DNA of 64,000 nucleotides from Ginsengibacter sp. (GTDB lineage Bacteria; Bacteroidota; Bacteroidia; Chitinophagales; Chitinophagaceae), in NCBI GenBank assembly GCA_039931355.1, contig JBDTSD010000007.1:314-64313 (forward strand), given 5' to 3'. The translations under genes were made by a program, and so were the position numbers. This document shows positions 9,583 to 32,169 of this stretch, piece after piece (position 1 is the stretch's first letter; each line of letters opens with the position of its first letter). The notes under the pieces were generated by a model. It was given only the letters and a program-made list of their open reading frames with translations. It did not search any database and had not been told where the DNA came from.

Positions 9583-12336
9583 ATGAAAAAAAATATAGCA
9601 CCCGCGAAGTATGTATATTTCTTCGGAGGTAATAAAGCAGACGGTAATGAATCTATGAAAAACCTGCTGGGCGGCAAAGGGGCAAACCTGGCTGAAATGG
9701 CGGGTCACCCAAAACTGCGATTACCTGTTCCGCCGGGTTTTACCGTGACCACAGATGTATGCACCTATTATTACGAAAATAAAAAAACATACCCGGGTGC
9801 ATTAAAGAAACAAGTGGAAGAAGCGATCGCCAAAATGGAAAAGCTTACCGGTAAAAAGTTTGGGGATGAGAAGAATCCATTACTTGTATCCGTACGTTCA
9901 GGTGCCCGGCGCTCAATGCCCGGAATGATGGAAACAGTATTAAATGTAGGGCTAAATGAAAAAACCATCAAGGGAATCATCGCACAAAGCGGCGACGAGC
10001 GTTTTGCTTATGATGCCTATCGCCGGTTGATCATGATGTATGCGGATGTGGTGATAGAAAAAGGCGGTGGTATAGAAATAAAAAACGGAAAAGGCATTCG
10101 CAAAATGCTGGATGAAAAGCTGGGGGATGTCAAGAAAAAGAAGGGATACACCAGTGATACAGATCTTACCGCAGCCGAACTAAAAGAACTCGTAAAAGAT
10201 TACAAGCAAAGTGTAAAAAAATTATTGGGTACAACTTTTCCGGATGATCCCTGGGAACAACTTTGGGGTGGTATTGGCGCTGTGTTCAGTAGCTGGAATG
10301 GAAAAAGAGCGGTGGAATATCGCCGGATTGAAAAAATTCCGGATGAATGGGGAACAGCCGTAAATGTGCAGGCAATGGTATTTGGAAATATGGGTACCGA
10401 CAGTTCTACCGGGGTCGCTTTCACACGAAATCCTGGTACCGGAGAAAATAAATTTTATGGAGAATACCTGGTGAATGCCCAGGGTGAAGATGTGGTGGCA
10501 GGAACCCGCACACCAGCCCCGGTGAATGAATATTCAAAAAATTCACAAAGCAAACAATTCAAAACACTGGAAAAATTAAAGCCTGCTTTATACCAGGAAT
10601 TATACGGCTACCAGAAGAAACTGGAGAAGCATTATAAAGATATGCAGGATATTGAATTCACCATTGAGCAGGGGAAACTGTATATGCTGCAATGCCGGGT
10701 AGGTAAAAGAAATGGCATTGCTGCAGTAAGGATGGCAACAGAAATGTATGCTGAAAAACTCATTGATGCAAAGACAGCTATCATGAGGGTTGGCCCCAAT
10801 CAACTGGTGGAATTATTACTGCCGATGCTTGATCCAAAAGCTGAATTATTAAATACAGTAATTGCAAAAGGACTACCTGCAGGCCCCGGTGGCGCCAAGG
10901 GCCGCGTCGTATTTACTTCCAATGATGCGGTAGAGTGGGCACATAAGGGAGAAAAAGTAATCCTGGTTCGCGAAGAGACCTCACCGGAAGATGTGGATGG
11001 CATGCATAAGTCCGAGGCCATCTTAACTTCAAAGGGTGGCATGACATCGCATGCCGCGCTGGTAGCAAGAGGCTGGGGCAAATGCTGTATCGTTGGTTGC
11101 GGCGATATTGAAATACACCATGACACCAAAACATTTCATGCAAAGAATGGCGTAATAGTTAAAGAGGGAGATCTTATCACATTAAATGGAACCCGGGGAT
11201 TAGTATATGAAGGCAGTTTGCCATTAGTGGCAATTGACCTGGATAAAAACCAATCCTACAAAGATCTTATGAAACTCGTTGACAAAGTGAAGGATATGGG
11301 AGTTCGCACCAATGCAGAAACACCCGGTGATGCAATGCAGGGATTAAAATTTGGTGCAGAGGGCATCGGCTTGTTCCGTACTGAACACATGTTTTATGGA
11401 GAAGGAAGCGTACAACCACTGTTCCTGCTGCGCAAAATGATCGTTAGCAAAACAGAGCCGGAACGAAAAAATGCGTTGAATGAACTATTTGTTTATGTAA
11501 AGAAGGATATCAAAAACACCCTGAAAGTAATGAATGGCCACCCTGTTACCATTCGTTTATTGGATCCACCATTGCATGAATTCGTTCCGCATGATGCAGA
11601 AAAACTTCATCAATTGAGCAGGGAGCTTGGTATCAGTATGGGCCTGTTGAGGAGAAGGGTGTTGGCATTGCATGAAAATAACCCTATGCTTGGACACCGG
11701 GGAGTTCGTTTAGGAGTGAGTTACCCGGAAGTCACAGAGATGCAGGTGAGGGCTATACTTGAGGCAACGGCTGAACTGATTAAATCCGGCAGGAAAGCGT
11801 TCCCCGAAATAATGGTGCCGGTGACATGCACGGTAAATGAATTGATTCACCAGAAAAAAATCGTTGACAGGGTATATAAAGAAGTATGCGAAAAAACAAA
11901 AATGAAAAGCATACCTTATCTCTATGGTACCATGATTGAAATACCCAGGGCAGCCATACGAGCTGACCGGATGGCGGAAGTTGCAGACTTCTTTAGCTTT
12001 GGAACAAACGATCTCACTCAAATGAGTTTTGGCTTCAGCCGCGACGATATAGGTGGATTTTTACCAAATTATCTTGACCTGAAATTGTTGAAGGACGATC
12101 CTTTTCAAACTATTGACCAGGATGGCGTGGGTGAACTAATAAAATTAGGAACCGAAAGGGGACGTAAGACCAAACCAAACCTCAAAGTCGGAATCTGCGG
12201 AGAACATGGTGGCGATGCCGAAAGCGTAAAATTCTGCCATCGCATTGGAATGAATTATGTAAGCTGCTCGCCCTTCCGCGTGCCTATAGCAAGACTGGCG
12301 GCCGCACAGGCAACAATAGAATTTCCCAGGAAATAA
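9583..12336 (+). CDS. ppdK: Pyruvate, phosphate dikinase (start placed at ATG 9583)
   Basis: LGGKGANLAEM, VSVRSGA, GGMTSHAALVARG (phospho-His), SFGTNDLTQ, ICGEHGG. Confidence 0.97.
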   Translation: MKKNIAPAKYVYFFGGNKADGNESMKNLLGGKGANLAEMAGHPKLRLPVPPGFTVTTDVCTYYYENKKTYPGALKKQVEEAIAKMEKLTGKKFGDEKNPLLVSVRSGARRSMPGMMETVLNVGLNEKTIKGIIAQSGDERFAYDAYRRLIMMYADVVIEKGGGIEIKNGKGIRKMLDEKLGDVKKKKGYTSDTDLTAAELKELVKDYKQSVKKLLGTTFPDDPWEQLWGGIGAVFSSWNGKRAVEYRRIEKIPDEWGTAVNVQAMVFGNMGTDSSTGVAFTRNPGTGENKFYGEYLVNAQGEDVVAGTRTPAPVNEYSKNSQSKQFKTLEKLKPALYQELYGYQKKLEKHYKDMQDIEFTIEQGKLYMLQCRVGKRNGIAAVRMATEMYAEKLIDAKTAIMRVGPNQLVELLLPMLDPKAELLNTVIAKGLPAGPGGAKGRVVFTSNDAVEWAHKGEKVILVREETSPEDVDGMHKSEAILTSKGGMTSHAALVARGWGKCCIVGCGDIEIHHDTKTFHAKNGVIVKEGDLITLNGTRGLVYEGSLPLVAIDLDKNQSYKDLMKLVDKVKDMGVRTNAETPGDAMQGLKFGAEGIGLFRTEHMFYGEGSVQPLFLLRKMIVSKTEPERKNALNELFVYVKKDIKNTLKVMNGHPVTIRLLDPPLHEFVPHDAEKLHQLSRELGISMGLLRRRVLALHENNPMLGHRGVRLGVSYPEVTEMQVRAILEATAELIKSGRKAFPEIMVPVTCTVNELIHQKKIVDRVYKEVCEKTKMKSIPYLYGTMIEIPRAAIRADRMAEVADFFSFGTNDLTQMSFGFSRDDIGGFLPNYLDLKLLKDDPFQTIDQDGVGELIKLGTERGRKTKPNLKVGICGEHGGDAESVKFCHRIGMNYVSCSPFRVPIARLAAAQATIEFPRK

Positions 12337-12354
12337 TACTACATCATGAGAATC

Positions 12355-12390
12355 AATGCCCGGAATTATTTTATTCGGGGCATTTTTATT
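12355..12390 (+). terminator. Rho-independent terminator of ppdK
   Basis: aatgcccggaat-tatttt-attcggggcatt followed by a T-run. Confidence 0.75.
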
Positions 12391-12498
12391 TTCAAAATAA
12401 ATTGCAACCTAAATTATCTTCAGAACTTCTTACCTGTCGTAAATTAATATGAGCATTTTTTAACAACAAAAACGAGCATGTAGCTCTTGTAGATGCGA

Positions 12499-12537
12499 GT
12501 TGAGCAATGGATTCAAATCTCCCGATGGCTATCGTGA
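12499..12537 (+). repeat. Direct repeat copy 1 (includes a cccgatNNNNatcggg-type element)
   Basis: gttgagcaatggattcaaatctcccgatggctatcgtga, near-identical to 15263-15301. Confidence 0.85.
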
Positions 12538-13104
12538 CAATAATCTATAATATCCATCTTATCTTCTTTTAAAACATTAAAGCAATTATAGACAAGGTCA
12601 TGGCCATGGGTGAATGAAAAAAGATGCATCCACTTAGCAGGGAAAGATGCAGAAATACAATGAGTAAACATCGGAGCGTTTATATTTTACAGACATAATG
12701 CTAAGATAAGAAGATGGCTTGTCTTTAATTCGAAGACCGTTCAGGCATCGGGGTTTCATTTCCTGCTTTCCTATTAATTGTTAGTTTATTTAAAAAAGGA
12801 AATGAAAGCCCGCCGGGAAAGTATGGCCAAGCCCGGGCACGGGTGGATAGGTTGGGCTTCGGAAGAAGACGGAACTTCGGAGGCTGACTTCATTTAACCA
12901 AGCCAATAGATTCTTTTTAAAACTAACTCACAAAGGACCGGGAGATTGTAACATTTATTATACATATACCCTTCATCAGTGTATTTGTGGAAGAATCATA
13001 TTTTGTAATGATTCAAATCATCAAATATTAATATTGACATCATAATTAACCGAACCATTTCGCCTGATCTTTGCGTTATAAATTTTAATCAAAAATCAAG
13101 ACAA

Positions 13105-14361
13105 ATGAAAAATCTTGTTATACTCGGAGCCGGAACCGGCGGCACAATTATGGCGAATCACTTGCATCATCATTTGAAAAAGCCTGATTGGCAAATAAGC
13201 ATTATCGATGAACGCAAAGAACACTATTATCAGCCAGGGTATCTTTTTCTTCCTTTTGACATGTATGCTCCCGAAGATATTATAAAGACAGTTGAGGAAT
13301 TTATACCAAAGGAAGTTAAACTCATTAAGAAAAAAATAGATCGTATCCTGCCAAGCGATAATAAAATTAAACTCGATGGAGGTGAAGAATTAATTTATGA
13401 TATTTTAATAATTGCCACAGGCGCAAAAATAGCGCCCGAAGAAATAGAAGGAATGAAAGGCGCTGAATGGCAAAAATCTGTTTTTGATTTTTACACTTTC
13501 GAAGGTGCACTGGCTTTACGAAATAAATTGAGAGAATGGGAAGGCGGAAAATTGGTAGTGCATATAACAGAGATGCCGATTAAATGCCCGGTGGCTCCGC
13601 TGGAGTTTACTTTTTTAGCAGATTCATTTTTTAAGCACAAGCACATTCGCGATAAAGTTGACATAACTTATGTAACACCTTTGAGCGGCGCATTTACAAA
13701 ACCCAAAGCCACGGAAGCTCTTGATCATTTGCTTGAAGAAAAAAATATAAACATTGAAAGTGATTTTGCAATTGAGCATGTAGATAATGAAAAGAAAGAG
13801 ATTGTGGATTATGGCGGAAGAAGCATTCCATTTGATTTATTGGTAACGGTGCCCACCAATAAAGGAGATGATTTAATTGAAAGGTCAGGTATGGGTGACG
13901 ATTTAAATTATGTGCCTACGAATAAAGCCACGCTCCAATCAAAGGAATACGAAAACATTTTTGTGATAGGAGATGCAAGTAATATACCTGCGTCTAAAGC
14001 TGGCTCTGTTGCACACTTCGAAGCAGAAATATTGACTGACAATATCCTGCTTTATATAAAAGGAGAACCGTTAAAGGAAGAGTTTGACGGACATGCAAAC
14101 TGTTTCATTGAAACAGGAAATGGCAAAGCATTGCTAATAGATTTCAATTATACACATGAACCTGTAGAAGGAAGTTTTCCGTTCCCCGGCATTGGCCCTT
14201 TGCGTTTGCTCAAAGAAAGCAGGATGAACCATATGGGTAAGCTTGCTTTCAGATGGATCTATTGGAATGTTTTGTTGAAAGGAACACATATACCTTTCGT
14301 TTCTGCAACTATGTCGGAGAGTGGAAAACATTATGATAAAGTAGAGAGCGTTTCTAATTAA
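13105..14361 (+). CDS. sqr: Sulfide:quinone oxidoreductase family flavoprotein
   Basis: GAGTGG FAD motif, HYYQPGYLF, IKCPVAPLE (Cys), FDGHANCFIETG (Cys). Confidence 0.85.
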   Translation: MKNLVILGAGTGGTIMANHLHHHLKKPDWQISIIDERKEHYYQPGYLFLPFDMYAPEDIIKTVEEFIPKEVKLIKKKIDRILPSDNKIKLDGGEELIYDILIIATGAKIAPEEIEGMKGAEWQKSVFDFYTFEGALALRNKLREWEGGKLVVHITEMPIKCPVAPLEFTFLADSFFKHKHIRDKVDITYVTPLSGAFTKPKATEALDHLLEEKNINIESDFAIEHVDNEKKEIVDYGGRSIPFDLLVTVPTNKGDDLIERSGMGDDLNYVPTNKATLQSKEYENIFVIGDASNIPASKAGSVAHFEAEILTDNILLYIKGEPLKEEFDGHANCFIETGNGKALLIDFNYTHEPVEGSFPFPGIGPLRLLKESRMNHMGKLAFRWIYWNVLLKGTHIPFVSATMSESGKHYDKVESVSN

Positions 14362-14393
14362 ATTATTTAAATCATCATTTAAAAAAACAAAAT

Positions 14394-14702
14394 ATGGAAA
14401 GGACAATAACGGGTAAATCAATAACCGTAAACGAAGAAGGGTACTTAAAAGATTTTAGCCAATGGGATGATAAAGTGGGAGAAGCATTAGCTGCTGAAGC
14501 TGATATCGTTCTGACTCCAAGACATTGGGAAGTTATAAAGTACCTGCAAAATGAGCAAAAGAACCAGGTAGCGCTTAGTATACGACGTATTGGAAAAAGC
14601 GGCGTAGTAGATATTAAGGAGTTGTACCAATTATTTCCAATGGCGCCGTTAAAAACCGCAACAAAAATTGCCGGTATACCCAAGCCTGCAAGTTGTATTT
14701 AA
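14394..14702 (+). CDS. tusE: TusE/DsrC family sulfur relay protein
   Basis: NEEGYLKDFSQWD, LTPRHWEVI, KIAGIPKPASCI with a single penultimate Cys. Confidence 0.88.
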   Translation: MERTITGKSITVNEEGYLKDFSQWDDKVGEALAAEADIVLTPRHWEVIKYLQNEQKNQVALSIRRIGKSGVVDIKELYQLFPMAPLKTATKIAGIPKPASCI

Positions 14703-14714
14703 AAAAAATAAATT

Positions 14715-15260
14715 ATGTCAATTATGTATGAAGAAAATGAAGCAACTGCTATACTCGGGAAAAGTGATGCAGCAGTTAAACATGAGAATAACAAAACAAT
14801 AAAAAAGATGATGATCATCTTATCCAAAGGAACCCTTGAAAATGTGTATGCCGCTTTTGTATTGGCAAACGGTGCAAGAATGGAAGGTATAGAAGCGGAA
14901 ATGTTCTTTACTTTTTTTGGGTTGGAGGCAATTCACAAAAAGAAACTGGAGCACCTGCATGTGGCTACTGTAGGCAATCCTGCTATGCACATGCCCACAA
15001 TGTTGGGTGGCTTGCCTGGTATGGAAGCCCTGGCTACTCACATGATGAAAAAAGAAATGGAAAAAATTGATATGCCGGATATACTTGAGTTTTTGGATAT
15101 TCTATCCGCTTCCGGTGTAAAATTATGGGCATGCAAATTAGCGATGGATATGTTTCATTACAAGAAAGAAGATTTGTATGACGGTATCGATGATGTAATT
15201 ACAGTAGGTGATTTTTATAAAGAGAGTGCAGGTGAAGGAGTGCACATGCTGTTTGTATAA
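14715..15260 (+). CDS. DsrE/DsrF/DrsH-like (DsrE2-type) sulfur transfer protein
   Basis: IILSKGTLE, FFTFFGL, KLWACKLAMDMF conserved Cys. Confidence 0.85.
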   Translation: MSIMYEENEATAILGKSDAAVKHENNKTIKKMMIILSKGTLENVYAAFVLANGARMEGIEAEMFFTFFGLEAIHKKKLEHLHVATVGNPAMHMPTMLGGLPGMEALATHMMKKEMEKIDMPDILEFLDILSASGVKLWACKLAMDMFHYKKEDLYDGIDDVITVGDFYKESAGEGVHMLFV

Positions 15261-23221: not shown

Positions 23222-24043
23222 ATGAAGAATAAATATATATCAACGCAGTCCAATGAATTGCTATCTTATTTCAATGAGCAGAATAAGGCTGGTTTTGATT
23301 ATAGTGAGGCTTTCAGAGCATTGCCAGAGTCAAAGGACAGCACTCTTCGGGAGCTACTTAGCGACATGACAAAACGAGGACTTTTAATGCGATTAAAAGA
23401 AGGTGTTTATTACATCATTCCCTACGAGCAAAAGGCTGAATCATTTATGCCCGACTGGCATTTGATAGCAGAGCATTTGGTAAAAGATGCCAAACACTAT
23501 ATCGGTTACTATTCTGCTTTGCAAATTCATAACCTGATTACTCAACCTTCTTTAAAAGAACAGATTGTTGTTTCCAGACAACTCCGGCCATCAGAAATAA
23601 AAATCAAAAATGTTTCTTTTCAATTTATTTATCACAATGAAAAACATTTTTTTGGAGCAAAAAAAATATGGATAGATAATTTCAACAAGGTGCTTTGCTC
23701 AGACTTAGAAAAAACTTTTGTTGATTGCCTTTTCAAACCTGATTATGCTGGTGGCATGGTTGAAATAGCAAGAGCCATTTATATCTCAAAAGATAAAATC
23801 AAATTTGATACGTTGTTTGAGTATGTCAAAAAATTTAATTCACAAGCGGTAATAAAACGGTTGGGATTTCTTTTAGAAACGCTGGAAATAAATAACAGTA
23901 TAATTGATGAATTACAGAAACTTAAAACTACCTCTTATGTAATTGCGGATACAGAATTACCAAAAACGGGAAAACGAATCAGCAGATGGAGCATTCAGCA
24001 GAATATAGAAACGGAAACAATTAAATCAGCTATTTACACATGA
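23222..24043 (+). CDS. abiEi: Type IV TA antitoxin, AbiEi family transcriptional regulator
   Basis: N-terminal wHTH (LSDMTKRGLLMRLKEGVY), YIGYYSALQIHNL, SDLEKTFVDCL, KRLGFLLE. Confidence 0.88.
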   Translation: MKNKYISTQSNELLSYFNEQNKAGFDYSEAFRALPESKDSTLRELLSDMTKRGLLMRLKEGVYYIIPYEQKAESFMPDWHLIAEHLVKDAKHYIGYYSALQIHNLITQPSLKEQIVVSRQLRPSEIKIKNVSFQFIYHNEKHFFGAKKIWIDNFNKVLCSDLEKTFVDCLFKPDYAGGMVEIARAIYISKDKIKFDTLFEYVKKFNSQAVIKRLGFLLETLEINNSIIDELQKLKTTSYVIADTELPKTGKRISRWSIQQNIETETIKSAIYT

Positions 24044-24864
24044 TTAAGCCCATAGAGATAAAACAGAAGGCAAGAGAAGCGGGCGTTCGTGACCAGCAGA
24101 TAGAAAAGGACTATGTGCTTTCATGGATATTGAATGGTGTTGCACAACATGAACAGCTTTCAAAAATAATTGTATTTAAAGGTGGGACTGTTTTAAAGAA
24201 AATTTATTTCGAAGACTATCGGTTTTCTGAAGACCTTGATTTTACATTACTCAACAATGAAATAACCAATGAACAAATATTTACCTGGTTCAAAGAAACG
24301 TTTGAATATATTTTGGAAGAAGCAAACATAGTGCTCGGAATTATTAACCCCGATAGTAATCGGGGCAGGCCCGAACATGAAGATGGCGGTATCAATTTTT
24401 ACATCAGCTATACCGGTCCGCTTGGCGGGCAAGGCAATAATAAAAGAGTAAAAGTTGATATTTCCAGAAGTGAAAAACTGGAATTTGAACCGGTATTGAA
24501 AACGGGTATCATTGGCTATTCTGATTTAGAAGAACATCAACTATTATGTTATTCGCTTGAAGAAGTGTTGGTAGAAAAAATGCGGACAGTTATGCAGCGG
24601 ATGCAGGCAAGAGATTTTTATGACATCTGGTTTTTATTGGAACACCATGGGATGGATGCAGCATTTCATATAAATGAATTTGCAAAGAAATGTGCCAGCA
24701 AGAATTTGAACTACCTTGATTTCCCTAAAAAATTAGCCGAACGGTTACCACAATACAAAGGACGTTGGAAAAGCTCCATGAATGAACAGATAAAAAACTT
24801 ACCGGATTTTGAACAGGTAGAAAGAGAAGTGCAAAGACATTTAAAGAAATTGAAATTACAATGA
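24040..24864 (+). CDS. abiEii: Type IV TA toxin, AbiEii nucleotidyltransferase
   Basis: EKDYVLSWIL, FKGGTVLKKIYF, RFSEDLDF, EKMRTV, ARDFYDIW; ATGA overlap with abiEi. Confidence 0.92.
   Translation: MIKPIEIKQKAREAGVRDQQIEKDYVLSWILNGVAQHEQLSKIIVFKGGTVLKKIYFEDYRFSEDLDFTLLNNEITNEQIFTWFKETFEYILEEANIVLGIINPDSNRGRPEHEDGGINFYISYTGPLGGQGNNKRVKVDISRSEKLEFEPVLKTGIIGYSDLEEHQLLCYSLEEVLVEKMRTVMQRMQARDFYDIWFLLEHHGMDAAFHINEFAKKCASKNLNYLDFPKKLAERLPQYKGRWKSSMNEQIKNLPDFEQVEREVQRHLKKLKLQ
24347..24364. repeat. cccgatNNNNatcggg palindrome (family Q) in frame inside abiEii
   Basis: ccccgatagtaatcgggg within the segment encoding NPDSNRG. Confidence 0.7.
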
Positions 24865-25496: not shown

Positions 25497-25617
25497 TATA
25501 GAGAATTTTACATATTATTTTTAAACCGGAGCGTTTCTGACACCGTAGGGGTTCAATAGTAGCCCCTCTGAATCAACAGAACAACAGTTGCAGAACACTC
25601 CACAAATCTGCACTGTA

Positions 25618-26244
25618 ATGGACAAACAATCCAAGCCGGGTTATTACATTTTCCATCCTGAAAAAGGCAACGAATTATTTTTACTCCGTGCTGCAAAGGC
25701 CAGCGATAAATTGCATGCAAGAGCCGCAAAGAATCAACTCATTATTGACAATGAAGGTTTTCTTCGGGCTACAATTCAAGAATGGGTCGGATTAAAATCA
25801 TTTATTGACTTTGACTATTTGCTTGAAGAAGCACGAATCTCTTTTTTTACAGCCATTGAGAAATATGACTTGAATCAAGATGTTTCAATTCGTACTTACG
25901 CAAAGTTCCATCTCATGGAATTGAGAAGGCAAACTTTTAGGCCAACAAAATTCACGGAGTTTAAAAAAGAATATTGCGGAGAAACATTTTTTCTTCCGAA
26001 TCCTGATTTCAAAAATTTTGACTTGAAAGCAATCGTAATGACTGCTCTGGAAAAAGCACTCACTATACTTGAACAAGAAGTAATCTACATGCACTTTTTT
26101 GAAGGATACAAAAAGAGGCAGATTGCATTGCAACGCCAATGTTCGGAAGCGAGAGTTTGCACCATTGTAAAAAATGCTCTCCCGAAACTCAAAGTATATC
26201 TCCTAAGTATCGGCATCGTTCCCGGATTTCTCGAACTCAATTAA
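25618..26244 (+). CDS. Sigma-70 family factor-like protein (regions 2 and 4 only; ATG 25618 or TTG 25588)
   Basis: AKNQLIIDNEGFL (2.1), LLEEARISFFTAIEKYD (2.2), SIRTYA (2.3), LTILEQEVIYMHFFEGYKKRQIA..SEARVCTIVKNALPKLK (region 4 HTH). Confidence 0.75.
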   Translation: MDKQSKPGYYIFHPEKGNELFLLRAAKASDKLHARAAKNQLIIDNEGFLRATIQEWVGLKSFIDFDYLLEEARISFFTAIEKYDLNQDVSIRTYAKFHLMELRRQTFRPTKFTEFKKEYCGETFFLPNPDFKNFDLKAIVMTALEKALTILEQEVIYMHFFEGYKKRQIALQRQCSEARVCTIVKNALPKLKVYLLSIGIVPGFLELN

Positions 26245-26285
26245 ACAATCAATCAAATAATTTCAAACAAATTAATTCAAACAAA

Positions 26286-28112
26286 ATGGAAGCAACAGTT
26301 AAAACAAATGAGATAGAATCTCTACAAGGTTTAGAACGCCAACGGGCATTTCTTGACACTATCAAAGCAGGGGGCACAAAGGATGATTCCTTTTTCGTTA
26401 CCGAAAAAGTAATGGAGAGTATGCGTGATAGCGGCTACCGCGACATACGCAAAGCTCTTAATGATTTAATGGATAATGCTGAACAAGCCGGAGCAAAGAA
26501 AATTGCAATTATAACCACGACTGAAAAGGAGAATGTAAAAGGTGCAAGAGAAAAAATTTCAAATATTGCTGTTATTGATGATGGACATGGAATGTTCCCA
26601 GAGATGTTAGAGATTGCGGTTAAGTGGGGAGGCACAGACAGACATAACCAAAGAGATGGGTTAGGAAGATTTGGTTTTGGCCTGCCAACCGCATCCATAA
26701 GCGTAACCCGTGTGTATGAAGTTTACTCCAAAACAAAAGGAGGTGATTGGCACAAAGTAAAAGTTGACCTTAATGAAATTGCTAAGAAAGCAATGACAAG
26801 CGGAGGCAACGCATCTTTTACTCCACAGTTTGAAAAAGGAACTCCACCCGCTTTTGTAAAAGAGTATATCAAAAAGCAATGGAAGAAAGACGACCTCGAA
26901 CACGGCACAGTTGTTTTGCTTTTGAATCCTGATAGAATTAGAAGTTATGCTTTACCACAAACTTTTCAACGAAAGATGTTAGAAAATATTGGATTAACCT
27001 ATCGACACTTTATGCCCGATTTAAATTTTTCGGTTAACGATAAGAAAGTTGAAATGATAGACCCACTTTTCCTAAATCCCAATTGTATGGGCTATGATGT
27101 AGGCAACGGTCATTTTGCTGAAGGGCTTGATGAAATGATAATCCCCGTTAAAAATAAGTTGGCAAATGGGAAGGATATTGTTGGTAATATAAGATTGAGG
27201 TTTTCATTTATGCATCCTAAGTTTCAAAAGGGCGACCCAGAGAAATACACTAATAAGGGAGAGATTCCTATCCGAATGAATACCATGAAAGAAAACAATG
27301 GTTATTTCATTGTGTGCAGAGCGGGTCGCCAAATTGATGTTGTGAGGGATACAAATTATCAAAGCAATAATGATAATACAACAATTGTCAACTATGATGT
27401 TAACTGGGGCATTGAATTACACTTTGAACCAATCTTAGATGAACTATTCGGGATTACGACGAATAAGCAACAAGTTGAAATTGATTCTTATCTCTGGGAT
27501 ATTTTTAAAGAGAATAACATACCAGCAATTGTTACTTCTTTTCGCTCAAGGCATAAAAAACTAATAACAAAAGATGAAGTTATCACCGAGGAGAAAAAAG
27601 ATGAGAGCAGAAGTTCAGAACAAATAATGACTGATGCTGACAAGTTCGACCAACTTGAATTGCCTATTTTAAAGAAGGAACAAGGAGAAGAAAAGCTCAG
27701 GGAAAAAGCAGAAGAAATTGCGCAGAAGGAAAATGAAAAAGTCGAGACGGTTGTCGAAAGAATGGAAATAGAAGCAGAGAAAAAGAAATTCAAAATTGAA
27801 TTCACTGACTTCCCTGGGGCACCGTTCTACGATGTTGAAATTTGGGGTAAGCAAATCAGAATTAAGATTAATACTGCACACCGTTTTTATGCTGACATTT
27901 ATTCACAGCAAGACCATCGAGGAAAAACAGCAATTGAACTCTTGTTATTTGTATTTGGAAAATGTGAAGCTGAGTCAGATGGCGAGAAGCAACTTTTTTA
28001 TGGCAACGAAAGATTTGAATGGTCGAAGCAACTTGATTTGAGATTGAAGATGCTTGACAAGCAAGACCCAATGGCTGATAAACTTTCTTTCGTAGAGGAA
28101 GAAGCGAGTTAA
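26286..28112 (+). CDS. MORC-type GHKL ATPase 1 (start placed at ATG 26286)
   Basis: RDSGY, NDLMDNAEQA (N-box), DDGHGM (G1), GRFGFGLPTASIS (G2); S5-like RAGRQID and ELFGITTNKQ; charged helical linker; INTAHRFY tail domain. Confidence 0.88.
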   Translation: MEATVKTNEIESLQGLERQRAFLDTIKAGGTKDDSFFVTEKVMESMRDSGYRDIRKALNDLMDNAEQAGAKKIAIITTTEKENVKGAREKISNIAVIDDGHGMFPEMLEIAVKWGGTDRHNQRDGLGRFGFGLPTASISVTRVYEVYSKTKGGDWHKVKVDLNEIAKKAMTSGGNASFTPQFEKGTPPAFVKEYIKKQWKKDDLEHGTVVLLLNPDRIRSYALPQTFQRKMLENIGLTYRHFMPDLNFSVNDKKVEMIDPLFLNPNCMGYDVGNGHFAEGLDEMIIPVKNKLANGKDIVGNIRLRFSFMHPKFQKGDPEKYTNKGEIPIRMNTMKENNGYFIVCRAGRQIDVVRDTNYQSNNDNTTIVNYDVNWGIELHFEPILDELFGITTNKQQVEIDSYLWDIFKENNIPAIVTSFRSRHKKLITKDEVITEEKKDESRSSEQIMTDADKFDQLELPILKKEQGEEKLREKAEEIAQKENEKVETVVERMEIEAEKKKFKIEFTDFPGAPFYDVEIWGKQIRIKINTAHRFYADIYSQQDHRGKTAIELLLFVFGKCEAESDGEKQLFYGNERFEWSKQLDLRLKMLDKQDPMADKLSFVEEEAS

Positions 28113-28152: not shown

Positions 28153-29643
28153 ATGGAAACAAGTATTATACAGTTTCAGAATTTTATTATTGCTACAAGA
28201 GATTCGGGCTACAAAAGCACTGCATCTGCCTTAGCAGAATTAGTTGACAATGCTATCGAAGCTCATGCGACTAAAGTTGAAATTCGAATTATCAAAGTTG
28301 ATGAATCAGAAAATGAGCAGTATGAAGTTTATGTAGTTGACAATGGAAAAGGAATGACAGAAAACGAACTCAATCTTGCTTTGCAATTCGGAGGGAGTTC
28401 ACGATTCAATTCACGAAGTCAACTTGGTCGCTATGGAATGGGATTACCAAATAGTTCTTTGAGCCAAAGCCGGAGGGTTGAAGTAACGACATGGAAAAAC
28501 AAAGGCGCATTTATCAGCAACTACCTTGATGTTGATGAGGTGATTGATAAAAAACTTACTTATTTGCCAAAACCTAAAAAATCCACAGAATGTTCTTTAC
28601 CAATTCATAGTAAGTCAGGGACTATAGTTCGGTGGAAAAAATGCGACCGCCTGTCGTTTAAGTATTTGAAAAGTTTGGTGAAGCATATCCAATTTGAATT
28701 GGGAAGAATTTTCCGTTATGCAATTTGGCGTGGGGTGGAAATAAAAGTGTGCAATGAAAAAGTAATTGCCTTTGACCCGCTTTTCATTGGCGAAGGAGTG
28801 AGTTTGAAAGGTGGTGTTCCTTATGGCAAGGAATTGCATTACGAAATAAAGTTACCAGGTAATGAAAAAAATATTTCGGATGTGCGGGTGCGATTTATTG
28901 AATTGCCTGTGCAGGATTGGGCAAAGTTGCCTAATGAGGAGAAACGAAGAAACCAAATCACGAAGTGTGCAGGTGTAACAATTCTTCGTGCTGAAAGAGA
29001 AATTGATTACGGTTGGTTTTTCATGGGAGAAAAGCGCAAGGAAAATTATGATGACTGGTGGCGGTGTGAAATTTCTTTTAGTCCTGATTTGGATGAAGTG
29101 TTTGGTGTAACACATACCAAACAAGAAATAAAGCAAACGGAGTTCATGAATAACATTCTTGTGCCTGACATGGAACAAACAGCACGGGCATTGAATAATC
29201 GAGTGCGCTTGAATTTTATTGACCTGAAGAAAACGCATCCTGCAGTTTATTCAAAACAGCAACTTGAACGAACTGATGTGTACTTGCCTGCGCTGAAAAA
29301 AAATGGAGGTGTTGTTACAAAGATGAATGCCAGCAGTAAAATCAAGGGTCTGCAATATGAAATCGTGACGAAGGAATTGAAGGACGACATTTTTTTTGAT
29401 GTCGAAGAAATTCAAAACTGCATTGTATTGACCGTGAACACTGCTCATTTATTTTATGACAAAGTTTTTAAAGCACTGCACGAGCGAAGGATAAACAATG
29501 TAGCAGGGTTTATCAAAGTCATGGAGATGCTGATCTTTGCTGCTGCAAGGTCAGAGTTTGCATTTACTGGAAGAAAGGAAGGCAAGATTATTTCGGACTT
29601 CAAAAAAGAATGGAGTTCTCAGTTAAAAACATTTATTAGTTAA
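28153..29643 (+). CDS. MORC-type GHKL ATPase 2, paralogue of ATPase 1
   Basis: RDSGY, AELVDNAIEA, DNGKGM, GRYGMGLPNSSLS, RAEREID, DEVFGVTHTKQ, VNTAHLFY. Confidence 0.9.
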   Translation: METSIIQFQNFIIATRDSGYKSTASALAELVDNAIEAHATKVEIRIIKVDESENEQYEVYVVDNGKGMTENELNLALQFGGSSRFNSRSQLGRYGMGLPNSSLSQSRRVEVTTWKNKGAFISNYLDVDEVIDKKLTYLPKPKKSTECSLPIHSKSGTIVRWKKCDRLSFKYLKSLVKHIQFELGRIFRYAIWRGVEIKVCNEKVIAFDPLFIGEGVSLKGGVPYGKELHYEIKLPGNEKNISDVRVRFIELPVQDWAKLPNEEKRRNQITKCAGVTILRAEREIDYGWFFMGEKRKENYDDWWRCEISFSPDLDEVFGVTHTKQEIKQTEFMNNILVPDMEQTARALNNRVRLNFIDLKKTHPAVYSKQQLERTDVYLPALKKNGGVVTKMNASSKIKGLQYEIVTKELKDDIFFDVEEIQNCIVLTVNTAHLFYDKVFKALHERRINNVAGFIKVMEMLIFAAARSEFAFTGRKEGKIISDFKKEWSSQLKTFIS

Positions 29644-31664
29644 TGGAAAAGGAAGTAATAAATATAGAGCCGAAATTAAGCAAGGTGCAACTTGAAATGT
29701 TTTTGAATTTCTGCAAGCGGGTGAAGAAATCGGTGAACAGAAAAAGAATTGATGTGAGAATTGAATTTTTGGTGAAGGAGAAAGAGGAAGTGAATGGGCA
29801 ATATAGTGGAAAGGGATTTCATCCACATACAGATTTGGCTTTCATGGAAAATTTGATTTTGGATTTGATGTTGCAAGATTGGGAACTGATAGTGAACAGA
29901 GGAAAGATTTTGCTGGAGTTGGAAACATTGGACATGAAGGATAAAAATCTTGACGATGAAAAAGCGAAAACGAGGCGCAGGCATTTATTAGCCAGAGATG
30001 TGCAACTGAAAGAAACTTCAGTAAGAGATTTCATTCGAGGAATGGAAAAAAGGCGACTAACTTCCAAAGGCTGGCAGTCGATCTTTTCTATTATGCGTGA
30101 TGGCAGTGAATTGAAAAAACTGTTGAATGAAGTAAAGCACCTTGCAACAGAAGACAAGAAGGTTGATGCGCTCAACAAAATTGTAAGGCCTTACATTCAG
30201 GTTGTCGAACCCACAGAAAAATGTGAGCAAACCGGCTTGGCTCTCTCTGACATTTGGAGATACTTCAGACACACCTGGATTAACGAATACAAATCGTTGC
30301 CGGGAAGATCAATGTCAATTTTGATTCGTGATGCTGCTGCACCCAATCACCCGGTGATTGGCATTGCAGCTCTTGGTAGCTCTGTTGCACAACAAACTTG
30401 CAGAGATGAATGGATAGGTTGGAATGGCGAAACATTTATTGAACGATTGAAAAATGACCCATCAGCAAAGCTTGGAAAATGGATTATTGAAACATTGGAA
30501 ATGCTTCTTAGTGAAATCTATCTGAAAGATTTTTTTAAGAGCAAAATCATTTCTCTTTCTGACATCAGAAATCCTTCATCGGAAAAAATAAAGGAGTTGC
30601 GTGAACTGTCGCTTCTGTTTAAGGCCAAGCACATGAACAACCCTGAAACTGCAAAGTTTAGTGTTGGTAACGATGAAATGAGTTGGTCCCAACGAGCCGA
30701 AACAAATTTGTTCAAGAGCAAAAGAGCGACTCTGCTTGCAGAACTGCTCGGAATAAAAATGATGCTGAACAAATATGAGTTCACGAAGGGAACGAAGAAA
30801 GAATTGGAAAGGTGTTTGGAGAATACAGATTTTCGAAATGCTGTAGAAAGATTAGCAAGAAAAGCAAAGTCCATTCACGTTGGAATAAATATGATGGACA
30901 TTATTGTTGCCGGTTCTGTTGCTCCTTATAATCATTTGCTGGGAGGTAAACTTGTTTGTATGATGCTGACGAGCCCTGAACTTACCCAATACTATAATGA
31001 GAAGTATGGGGAATATGTGAGTTTAATTGCTTCTTCTATGAGTGGCAAGGCACTTGTGCGGAAGCCGCAACTTGTAATGCTTGGCACTACAAGTTTGTAT
31101 GGGGTTGGAAGCAGCCAATACAACAGAATAAAAATTCCTGTTGAAGAAATCGGTGGGAAGAAAGGCCACAAAATAGAATACAAGGAACTTGGATTCAGCG
31201 AGGGCTTTGGTTCGTTTCATTTCAGCAGTAACACAATCACTTTAGCAGATGCTGTTGCTGGGCGTGAAAGTGGTAGAAAGCGTGTGAACAGTATTTTCGG
31301 TGAAGGTGCAAATCCATTGATAAGAAAGTTGAAAGACGCAATGGAGCATTTAGAGTTGGAGAGTAATCCAATTTTAAATCATCGTAACAAAAGAGTAGTA
31401 TATGGGATTGCTTTAGCAGAAAATTTTGGTGATGTTTTGCTGGGCTTAGCCGAGCGACCTAAGTATTTAATACCACAAGGAAAGCCAAAATTGCAAAGCG
31501 AGTTGATTGGCAAGTATTGGATAAAGCGATGGCTACTTAACCGAATTAAGAATGATGAAATTTTAGAAAAAGTTAATATGCATTCTCTATCATATCCGAT
31601 CACACATGGAGCAAGAGTGCCGCTAAATGAAGACGAAAATCAACTGGCATTATTTAATACTTGA
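29643..31664 (+). CDS. druA: DruA / DUF4338-like protein
   Basis: WRYFRHTW..LPGRSMSILIRDAAAPNHPVIGIAAL, RDEWIGW, GSVAPYNHLLGGKLV, GTTSLYGVGSSQYNR; TAATG coupling to ATPase 2. Confidence 0.78.
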   Translation: MEKEVINIEPKLSKVQLEMFLNFCKRVKKSVNRKRIDVRIEFLVKEKEEVNGQYSGKGFHPHTDLAFMENLILDLMLQDWELIVNRGKILLELETLDMKDKNLDDEKAKTRRRHLLARDVQLKETSVRDFIRGMEKRRLTSKGWQSIFSIMRDGSELKKLLNEVKHLATEDKKVDALNKIVRPYIQVVEPTEKCEQTGLALSDIWRYFRHTWINEYKSLPGRSMSILIRDAAAPNHPVIGIAALGSSVAQQTCRDEWIGWNGETFIERLKNDPSAKLGKWIIETLEMLLSEIYLKDFFKSKIISLSDIRNPSSEKIKELRELSLLFKAKHMNNPETAKFSVGNDEMSWSQRAETNLFKSKRATLLAELLGIKMMLNKYEFTKGTKKELERCLENTDFRNAVERLARKAKSIHVGINMMDIIVAGSVAPYNHLLGGKLVCMMLTSPELTQYYNEKYGEYVSLIASSMSGKALVRKPQLVMLGTTSLYGVGSSQYNRIKIPVEEIGGKKGHKIEYKELGFSEGFGSFHFSSNTITLADAVAGRESGRKRVNSIFGEGANPLIRKLKDAMEHLELESNPILNHRNKRVVYGIALAENFGDVLLGLAERPKYLIPQGKPKLQSELIGKYWIKRWLLNRIKNDEILEKVNMHSLSYPITHGARVPLNEDENQLALFNT

Positions 31665-31677
31665 TAAAACAAATCTT

Positions 31678-32169
31678 ATGGCAAGGAAAGTTTTTTTTAG
31701 TTTCCAATTTCAAAAGGATCATTGGCGGGCAGGGCAGGTGAGAAGTATTGGAGCGATAGAAGGTAACTCTGAAGTCTCAGATAACAAATGGGCAGAAATA
31801 AAAGCTCAAGGAGATAACGAAGTAAAAAAATGGATTAATGAAAATATGATTGGGAGAACTTGTTTAGTTGTTCTAATCGGTAATGGAACAGCTGATAGGA
31901 AATGGATAAACTACGAAATTGAAAAGGCTTGGAACGACAAAAGAGGTGTTGTCGGAATATATGTCCACAATTTAAAAAATAGCGCAGGTGAACAAGATGA
32001 CAAAGGTTATAACCCATTCGATTATGTATATCATGATGGAAAGAAACTTTCATCTATTGTAAAAACATTCAATTCAATTTATTCAACCAGTACATACGTT
32101 TACGATGATATAAAAAATAATCTTGTGAATCTTATAGAAGAGGCTATTAAAATTCGGGACAATAATTGA
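31678..32169 (+). CDS. thsB: ThsB-like TIR-domain protein (DUF1863/MTH538; start placed at ATG 31678)
   Basis: MARKVFFSFQF..DHWRAGQVR, IKKW-like EVKKWINENM, LVVLIG..TADRKWINYEI (catalytic Glu), GVVGIYVHNLK, GYNPF. Confidence 0.88.
   Translation: MARKVFFSFQFQKDHWRAGQVRSIGAIEGNSEVSDNKWAEIKAQGDNEVKKWINENMIGRTCLVVLIGNGTADRKWINYEIEKAWNDKRGVVGIYVHNLKNSAGEQDDKGYNPFDYVYHDGKKLSSIVKTFNSIYSTSTYVYDDIKNNLVNLIEEAIKIRDNN

Follow-up and report, generated by a model that had tools for sequence, protein, structure and literature searches.

The 64,000-nucleotide stretch of Ginsengibacter sp. DNA considered here (GenBank assembly GCA_039931355.1, contig JBDTSD010000007.1, positions 314 to 64,313; hereafter the window) carries druA, an intact open reading frame at positions 29643-31664 of the forward strand that encodes a 673-residue DruA of the long form. 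In the structure predicted for this protein, the conserved blocks very probably build a GNAT-fold transferase core that is broken by a helical insert. With equally high confidence, long-form DruA has an obligate partner, a MORC-like ATPase of the GHKL family encoded directly upstream. This core pair is conserved across many phyla and comes with either of two partner sets that mostly exclude each other, and the Ginsengibacter locus carries the set that lacks a helicase. On balance, we lean towards an explanation in which DruA actively transfers acyl or aminoacyl groups, perhaps to DNA, and works together with a MORC-type ATPase.

An intact long-form DruA with five conserved blocks

The PF14236 profile (DruA/DUF4338, Pfam) matches the druA product with 109.1 bits against a cut-off of 27, and the PADLOC long-form DruA1 model PDLC00001 matches it over its full length (E 6e-175). 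The Pfam match falls into two stretches, profile positions 30-129 corresponding to residues 163-271 and positions 129-296 to residues 415-600. As the profile match breaks at a single point, position 129, one insert splits the core. Five blocks are conserved: LPGRSMSILIRDAAAPNHPVIG (residues 219-240, nucleotides 30297-30362; the PGR..RD..HPVIG block), RDEWIGW (residues 254-260, nucleotides 30402-30422), PYNHLLGGKLV (residues 428-438, nucleotides 30924-30956), TTSLYGVGSSQYNR (residues 482-495, nucleotides 31086-31127; the TTSLYG..SSQYNR block) and FG.G.N...R (residues 552-561), a family-wide block in which G553, G555, N557 and R561 are invariant. Key motif residues do not vary across 43 long-form homologues whose identity extends down to 46%. 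A joint alignment of 29 classical short DruAs (~410 amino acids) and 13 long DruAs, at ~25% identity, contains ~45 invariant columns, all of them kept in Ginsengibacter DruA; these include G221, R222, D230, R254, D255, W260, D419, P428, Y429, N430, G435 and K436, together with T483, S484, S490, S491, Y493, N494 and R495. Judged by these alignments, the motif blocks are far beyond chance. Residues 262-414, 153 in number, correspond to gap-only columns in all 29 short DruAs, and the insert is thus exclusive to the long form. The N-terminal region includes a basic helix whose K107, R111 and R118 are invariant family-wide; a search of the ESM Atlas with the N-terminal 178 residues returned no usable match.

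The initial annotation, made from the letters of the window, had described a DruA-like protein with four conserved blocks split by a helical insert, had suggested a split GNAT-like fold, and had named a missing PF14236 match or an unrelated fold as grounds for giving this up. The profile match bears out the family assignment. All four blocks are present and are invariant in the 43 long-form homologues and in the short DruAs, and the insert is the 153-residue, all-helical segment at residues 262-414. The FG.G.N...R block had been overlooked.

A predicted GNAT-fold core split by a helical insert

An AlphaFold2 model of the long DruA, built on the 43-sequence alignment, reached a mean predicted local distance difference test score (pLDDT) of 85 and a predicted template modelling score of 0.84; the model of the classical short DruA reached a pLDDT of 77. 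In the N-terminal half of the long model, secondary structure assigns β1 to residues 183-188, a helix (α1) to 201-209, β2 to 223-230 and β3 to 238-245. A helical excursion follows at residues 262-412, all-helical and with pLDDT mostly >90, and the chain then returns to β4 (417-425), a helix starting at P428, β5 (479-483), β6 (510-518) and β7 (585-590). Assigned from the model, PYNxLLGGK would lie at the β4-α3 junction, where GNATs have motif A, their pyrophosphate loop for CoA, and TTSLYG..SSQYNR on β5/α4. The invariant FG.G.N...R loop, itself modelled with low confidence, is carried by a helical insertion between β6 and β7. Residues 543-556 (nucleotides 31269-31310), which hold most of this loop, have a pLDDT <50, as does the equivalent loop in the short-DruA model; it could be a mobile loop for substrate binding or catalysis.

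Both models were compared structurally with 48,161 PDB chains, and in each case the top 50 matches were exclusively GNAT-fold proteins. The AlphaFold and structure-search check proposed in the initial annotation therefore gave GNAT proteins throughout for two independent models, in agreement with the split GNAT-like fold suggested there. The range aligned to GNATs runs from residue 176 to 602 and comprises about 140-172 residues, passing over residues 262-414, which fits a GNAT core split by an insert. Foldseek rows against the PDB were also nearly all GNAT, but with weak E-values. A sequence search of all PDB chains with a DruA profile produced noise only.

Rank 1 for both the long and the short model was Mom of phage Mu, a DNA-modifying GNAT, which is also present among the viral structure matches of DruA. 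Mom transfers glycine from Gly-tRNA(Gly) onto the N6 of adenine in double-stranded DNA, has an atypical, essential helical insertion that is thought to bind DNA, and depends on the residues R111, S124, D149 and R151 (PMC13219725, whose numbering is used). These four residues are invariant in the Mom alignment built here (structure PDB 8BV8, family PF25680). Mom gives the longest aligned stretch in both DruA searches (172 of 202 residues); the β4-α3 junction starts with P-x-N and has a non-canonical motif A in both proteins, P-R-N-x-E-S in Mom and P-Y-N-x-L-L-G-G-K in DruA; and both have a late extra helical element, that of DruA lying between β6 and β7. By eye, P-R-N and P-Y-N occupy the same position, as do G..G..Y-Q and G..S..Y-N, whereas the Ser of Mom has no obvious counterpart in DruA. 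The lead of Mom in Z score is <1 and amounts to a tie, and hmmscan found no PF25680 match among the 43 long-form DruAs. A special closeness of DruA to Mom is only suggested by the models.

Other viral proteins resemble the predicted fold. In BFVD, uncharacterised proteins of giant viruses match the short-DruA model (Faunusvirus, E 2.9e-15; Yasminevirus, E 1.6e-12; Dasosvirus, E 9.6e-9), and so does a fragment from an uncultured tailed phage (E 4.5e-7). These proteins are far nearer to the short-DruA fold than any solved structure. A tblastn search of 50,697 phage records found no DruA.

A conserved core pair and two partner sets

Genomes of 185,579 species, one per species, were scanned with two long-form peptide signatures as the criterion, and 509 long-form DruA relatives were found; long-form DruA in an operon with a MORC-like ATPase occurs in about 0.3% of species genomes. 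Loci were analysed for the best 80 of the 509, which resemble the query most closely, including at most 10 kb of sequence to either side. They span Bacteroidota, Acidobacteriota, Verrucomicrobiota, Pseudomonadota, Planctomycetota, Spirochaetota, Gemmatimonadota and others, and long-form DruA is found on haloarchaeal plasmids as well. In 75 of the 80 loci a B-type GHKL gene lies immediately upstream of DruA on the same strand, mostly overlapping it or a few bases away, and in two others an A-type GHKL gene takes this position instead. The closest solved relatives of the B-type protein are the N-terminal ATPase domains of MORC2/3/4 (PDB). In Ginsengibacter, the stop codon of the B-type gene and the start codon of druA overlap by one base in the sequence TAATG, and druA is translationally coupled to the ATPase.

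The partners beyond this core pair fall into two sets. In 47 loci the pair is accompanied by X976, a protein of ~976 amino acids, and by DruD and DruE, the latter a large helicase of the YprA family with a DUF1998/MZB domain; PADLOC identifies the two as DruD1 (E 3.5e-120) and DruE1 (E 0), and a PD-(D/E)XK nuclease often joins them. X976 has no Pfam or PADLOC match and is encoded between long-form DruA and DruD (positions 12187-15075 of the Halotalea alkalilenta locus, L074, and 41 other loci); in BLASTP comparisons neither X976 nor the B-type GHKL showed similarity to classical DruB or DruC. In 22 loci the pair is joined by an A-type GHKL with no helicase set, which is the Ginsengibacter architecture and recurs in Bacteroidota, Verrucomicrobiota, Acidobacteriota, Spirochaetota and Planctomycetota. 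Both sets are present in three loci. The A-type GHKL occurs in 27 loci altogether, and a sigma-like gene was detected in 17, in 16 of them directly upstream of the A-type gene, whichever strand it is on. Homologous loci have further defence genes beside them, including Thoeris, an OLD-family nuclease and a RES-Xre pair.

The initial annotation had stated that DruA had no Druantia partners. For the Ginsengibacter genome (a 5.1 Mb assembly, 94% complete, with a single DruA) this is accurate. PADLOC found no match to DruB, C, D or E among the neighbours in the window, and the DruE1 model gave only a generic helicase-motif match in the genome (E 2.4e-4), of a kind also seen in control genomes; the same model gave E 0 in the L074 genome, the positive control. 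DruD1 and X976 were not found either, in searches that had no positive control. For the family, the statement does not hold; it is incomplete because of the obligate MORC-like partner and because most relatives lie beside DruD and DruE.

On a DruA tree built with FastTree, in which supports are local, carriers of the two partner sets are intermingled, and branches with good support require at least 12 switches between the sets. Ginsengibacter DruA belongs to a Bacteroidota clade of nine, eight of them of the helicase-free type; one member, L013, still has DruE next door. Its nearest relative, with 87% identity, comes from an Ohtaekwangia metagenome-assembled genome that has the Ginsengibacter-type architecture and in which DruE1 was not found.

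Halotalea alkalilenta (Halomonadaceae) and Castellaniella daejeonensis (Alcaligenaceae, L075) have near-identical DruA loci, with branch lengths of 0.0016, which suggests that the complete system was transferred horizontally only very recently. On a Hymenobacter canadensis plasmid (L089), DruA is annotated with 1052 amino acids, ~480 of them extra C-terminal residues, and lies beside a 1578-aa DUF3883 protein. A Natrialbaceae plasmid (L101) encodes a 705-aa DruA adjoining a divergently transcribed DEAD/DEAH helicase.

The Ginsengibacter locus and its island

The sigma-70-like, A-type GHKL, B-type GHKL and druA genes form a co-directional block in this order, with druA last (Table 1). The sigma-70-like protein has a weak match to FliA in the PDB. 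The two GHKL ATPases are full-length paralogues with 26% identity over their whole length (E 1e-35). The N-box is intact in the B-type protein (AELVDNA), and 71 of 76 relatives retain its Glu (E29); in the A-type protein Asp replaces the catalytic Glu (NDLMDNA). We rejected this substitution as a feature of the A-type family: Glu is retained in 24 of 29 A-type relatives, so that an attenuated subunit is not general to the system.

The block lies in an island at about 22.6-32.4 kb, bounded by housekeeping genes: pyruvate:ferredoxin oxidoreductase lies beyond one end, and an ArsB/CitMHS transporter, aroQ, carA, rplQ and rpoA lie beyond the other. An AbiEii nucleotidyltransferase toxin gene and an overlapping reading frame for 273 amino acids, presumably its AbiEi-type partner, make up the left part. 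A ThsB-type TIR gene begins 13 bases past the druA stop codon. There is no ThsA gene nearby, and a genome-wide search for ThsA (STALD) was empty, as was its control. The ThsB gene was rejected as a component of the system, as it lies near DruA in two of the 80 loci, one of which is a complete Thoeris.

Table 1. Features of the Ginsengibacter defence island and subdivisions of druA, in positions of the window
Feature	Position	Strand	Details
Reading frame for 273 aa, overlapping the AbiEii gene and just upstream of it	within 23222-24864	+	no Pfam match
AbiEii nucleotidyltransferase toxin	24040-24864	+	E 2.7e-36
Sigma-70-like protein	25588-26244	+	218 aa as listed, start perhaps a few codons further in; Pfam Sigma70_r4 E 3e-5
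A-type MORC-like GHKL ATPase	26139-28112	+	657 aa as listed, probable start Met at 26286; HATPase_c_3 E 3.6e-17
B-type MORC-like GHKL ATPase	28153-29643	+	496 aa; HATPase_c_3 E 6.6e-25
DruA, N-terminal region	29643-30167	+	residues 1-175; helices and β-hairpins (secondary structure and pLDDT of the model)
DruA, predicted GNAT core, N-terminal half	30168-30425	+	residues 176-261; PGR..RD..HPVIG and RDxWIGW (aligned range, Pfam profile 30-129)
DruA, predicted all-helical insert	30426-30884	+	residues 262-414 (model, Pfam split and alignment)
DruA, predicted GNAT core, C-terminal half	30885-31487	+	residues 415-615; PYNxLLGGK, TTSLYG..SSQYNR and FG.G.N...R (model and alignments)
DruA, C-terminal helices, low-confidence tail and stop	31488-31664	+	R629, W630 and R634 invariant
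ThsB-type TIR gene	31678-32169	+	PADLOC ThsB1 E 1.5e-69

A model for the core pair and its alternatives

What might a GNAT-like protein and a MORC-like ATPase accomplish together? In the explanation towards which we lean, DruA would be a catalytically active acyl- or aminoacyl-transferase, which we hold to be somewhat more likely than not. Its donor would be a housekeeping acyl-CoA or aminoacyl-tRNA, with acyl-ACP as a further candidate, because no donor-supplying gene is conserved near the DruA loci, and its acceptor would be a nucleic acid, for which DNA is our tentative choice. The MORC-type ATPase would clamp or scan the DNA that is being modified. Modification modules accompany DruE-like helicases in other systems: DruM in Druantia II, the Drm methylases in DISARM and 7-deazaguanine in Dpd. 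By analogy, DruA may be a non-methyl counterpart of these modules. In Ginsengibacter, the second MORC and the sigma-like protein would make up the read-out arm, in place of a helicase-nuclease. A bolder version of this proposal, which we think rather unlikely, is that the B-type MORC and DruA constitute a portable core for non-methyl marking of DNA, in which the GNAT acylates or aminoacylates bases and a MORC clamp loads it, with interchangeable read-out arms, and that here a second MORC and a private sigma-like factor silence or reprogram the transcription of marked or unmarked DNA rather than cutting it. If true, prokaryotes would possess an epigenetic silencing system based on MORC, and Druantia type I would be a restriction-modification-like system that operates on an acyl mark.

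Several observations weigh against the explanation that we favour. DruA does not literally contain the canonical motif A of GNATs (Q/R-x-x-G-x-G/A); it has the invariant and glycine-rich P-Y-N-x-L-L-G-G-K. Deviations at motif A are also seen in Mom and in the tRNA-dependent GNATs of the Fem type. In hmmscan searches of the 43 long-form members with E-values up to 10 no acetyltransferase or GNAT family appeared, and Foldseek against the PDB gave nothing significant for the whole long model and a best E of 4e-3 for the short one. Alignment of DruA with a Mom profile of 31 sequences by hhalign yielded a probability of 0.1, both with the full long-form alignment and with a short-form master from which the insert had been removed, and the link to Mom consequently stands on predicted structure. 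The resemblances to Mom are those read from alignments and secondary structure. Neither a nuclease nor another obvious effector is recognisable in the four-gene operon, the census covers the most query-like loci, and we know of no experiment on any DruA.

DruA could be an active GNAT whose acceptor is not DNA but an aminoacyl-tRNA, a small molecule or a protein, and could serve as a toxic or regulatory effector in the manner of TacT or AtaT, with the MORC-like ATPase acting as the sensor of infection. We regard this as somewhat unlikely. A separate toxin is less expected where DruA is found beside the full helicase set of DruD and DruE, invariant basic residues are numerous in DruA, its extra helical insertion is positioned as in Mom, and MORC and paraMORC ATPases act on DNA in every context described (PMC2292703). 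The departure from the canonical motif A, the lack of an assignable catalytic residue and sequence profiles that show no GNAT relation would all suit a non-catalytic, GNAT-like scaffold or ligand sensor that binds DNA, a nucleotide or a CoA-type ligand and recruits the ATPase. However, the invariants shared by short and long forms cluster at the β4-α3 and β5-α4 junctions, the positions of the GNAT active site, and polar residues (Ser, Tyr, Asn, Asp, Arg and Lys) are among them, a pattern typical of an enzyme; a scaffold therefore seems quite improbable.

The failure to find DruE1, DruD1 and X976 in the Ginsengibacter genome, and the DruE that still adjoins DruA in L013 of the same clade, could also be taken to mean that the locus is a decaying, non-functional leftover of a Druantia type I-like system after the loss of DruD and DruE. 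We consider this extremely improbable, as all four genes are intact, every family invariant is retained together with the translational coupling, the helicase-less architecture occurs in 22 of the 80 loci and in five phyla, and the nearest genome of the same architecture has no DruE either.

The predicted GNAT fold of DruA, with Mom as its top structural match, translates into a concrete test of function: a non-methyl DNA adduct, or the use of acyl-CoA or aminoacyl-tRNA, can be looked for. Current definitions miss a core pair that has switched repeatedly between the Druantia helicase arm and a helicase-free arm with a second MORC. The helicase-free arm, often with the sigma-like protein, is an unannotated and widespread candidate defence system, and it offers a natural setting in which to ask what MORC proteins do in prokaryotes.

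Comparison with known systems

The DruA of classical Druantia type I (~409 amino acids, for example that of Pseudomonas putida pKF715A) belongs to the same family as Ginsengibacter DruA by Pfam and PADLOC match, shares the ~45 invariant residues and has the predicted GNAT core. The Ginsengibacter protein differs in its length of 673 residues, a longer N-terminal region and the 153-residue helical insert. The loci differ as well: that of pKF715A, the one classical locus examined, encodes all of DruB, C, D and E but no GHKL protein, whereas in the Ginsengibacter locus none of these four is present and a MORC-like ATPase gene precedes druA.

In paraMORC operons, the partners of the ATPase are methylases, endonucleases and superfamily 2 helicases (Iyer, Abhiman and Aravind 2008, PMC2292703); neither a DruA, GNAT or acetyltransferase partner nor a sigma-like one is described in that survey. 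Both Ginsengibacter ATPases resemble the MORC and paraMORC proteins in having HATPase_c_3 and in lying in a defence-type operon with a probable modification enzyme. The GNAT toxins TacT, AtaT and ItaT, which acetylate aminoacyl-tRNA, have in common with DruA the predicted fold, a substrate that is or may be linked to nucleic acid, and a role in biological conflict that is putative for DruA, and toxin structures occur among the structural matches of DruA (7byy, 5fvj). These toxins are encoded in small two-gene toxin-antitoxin modules and have a canonical acetyl-CoA motif, whereas DruA is 3-4 times their size, lacks a partner resembling an antitoxin and is coupled to an ATPase.

In the literature searched, no fold or function is assigned to DruA/DUF4338, and no link is drawn between DruA and GNATs or Mom, or between Druantia and MORC or GHKL proteins. 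The protein itself is not new, since PADLOC already includes a model for long-form DruA. What is new here is the fold assignment, the obligate MORC partnership and the recurrent helicase-free architecture.

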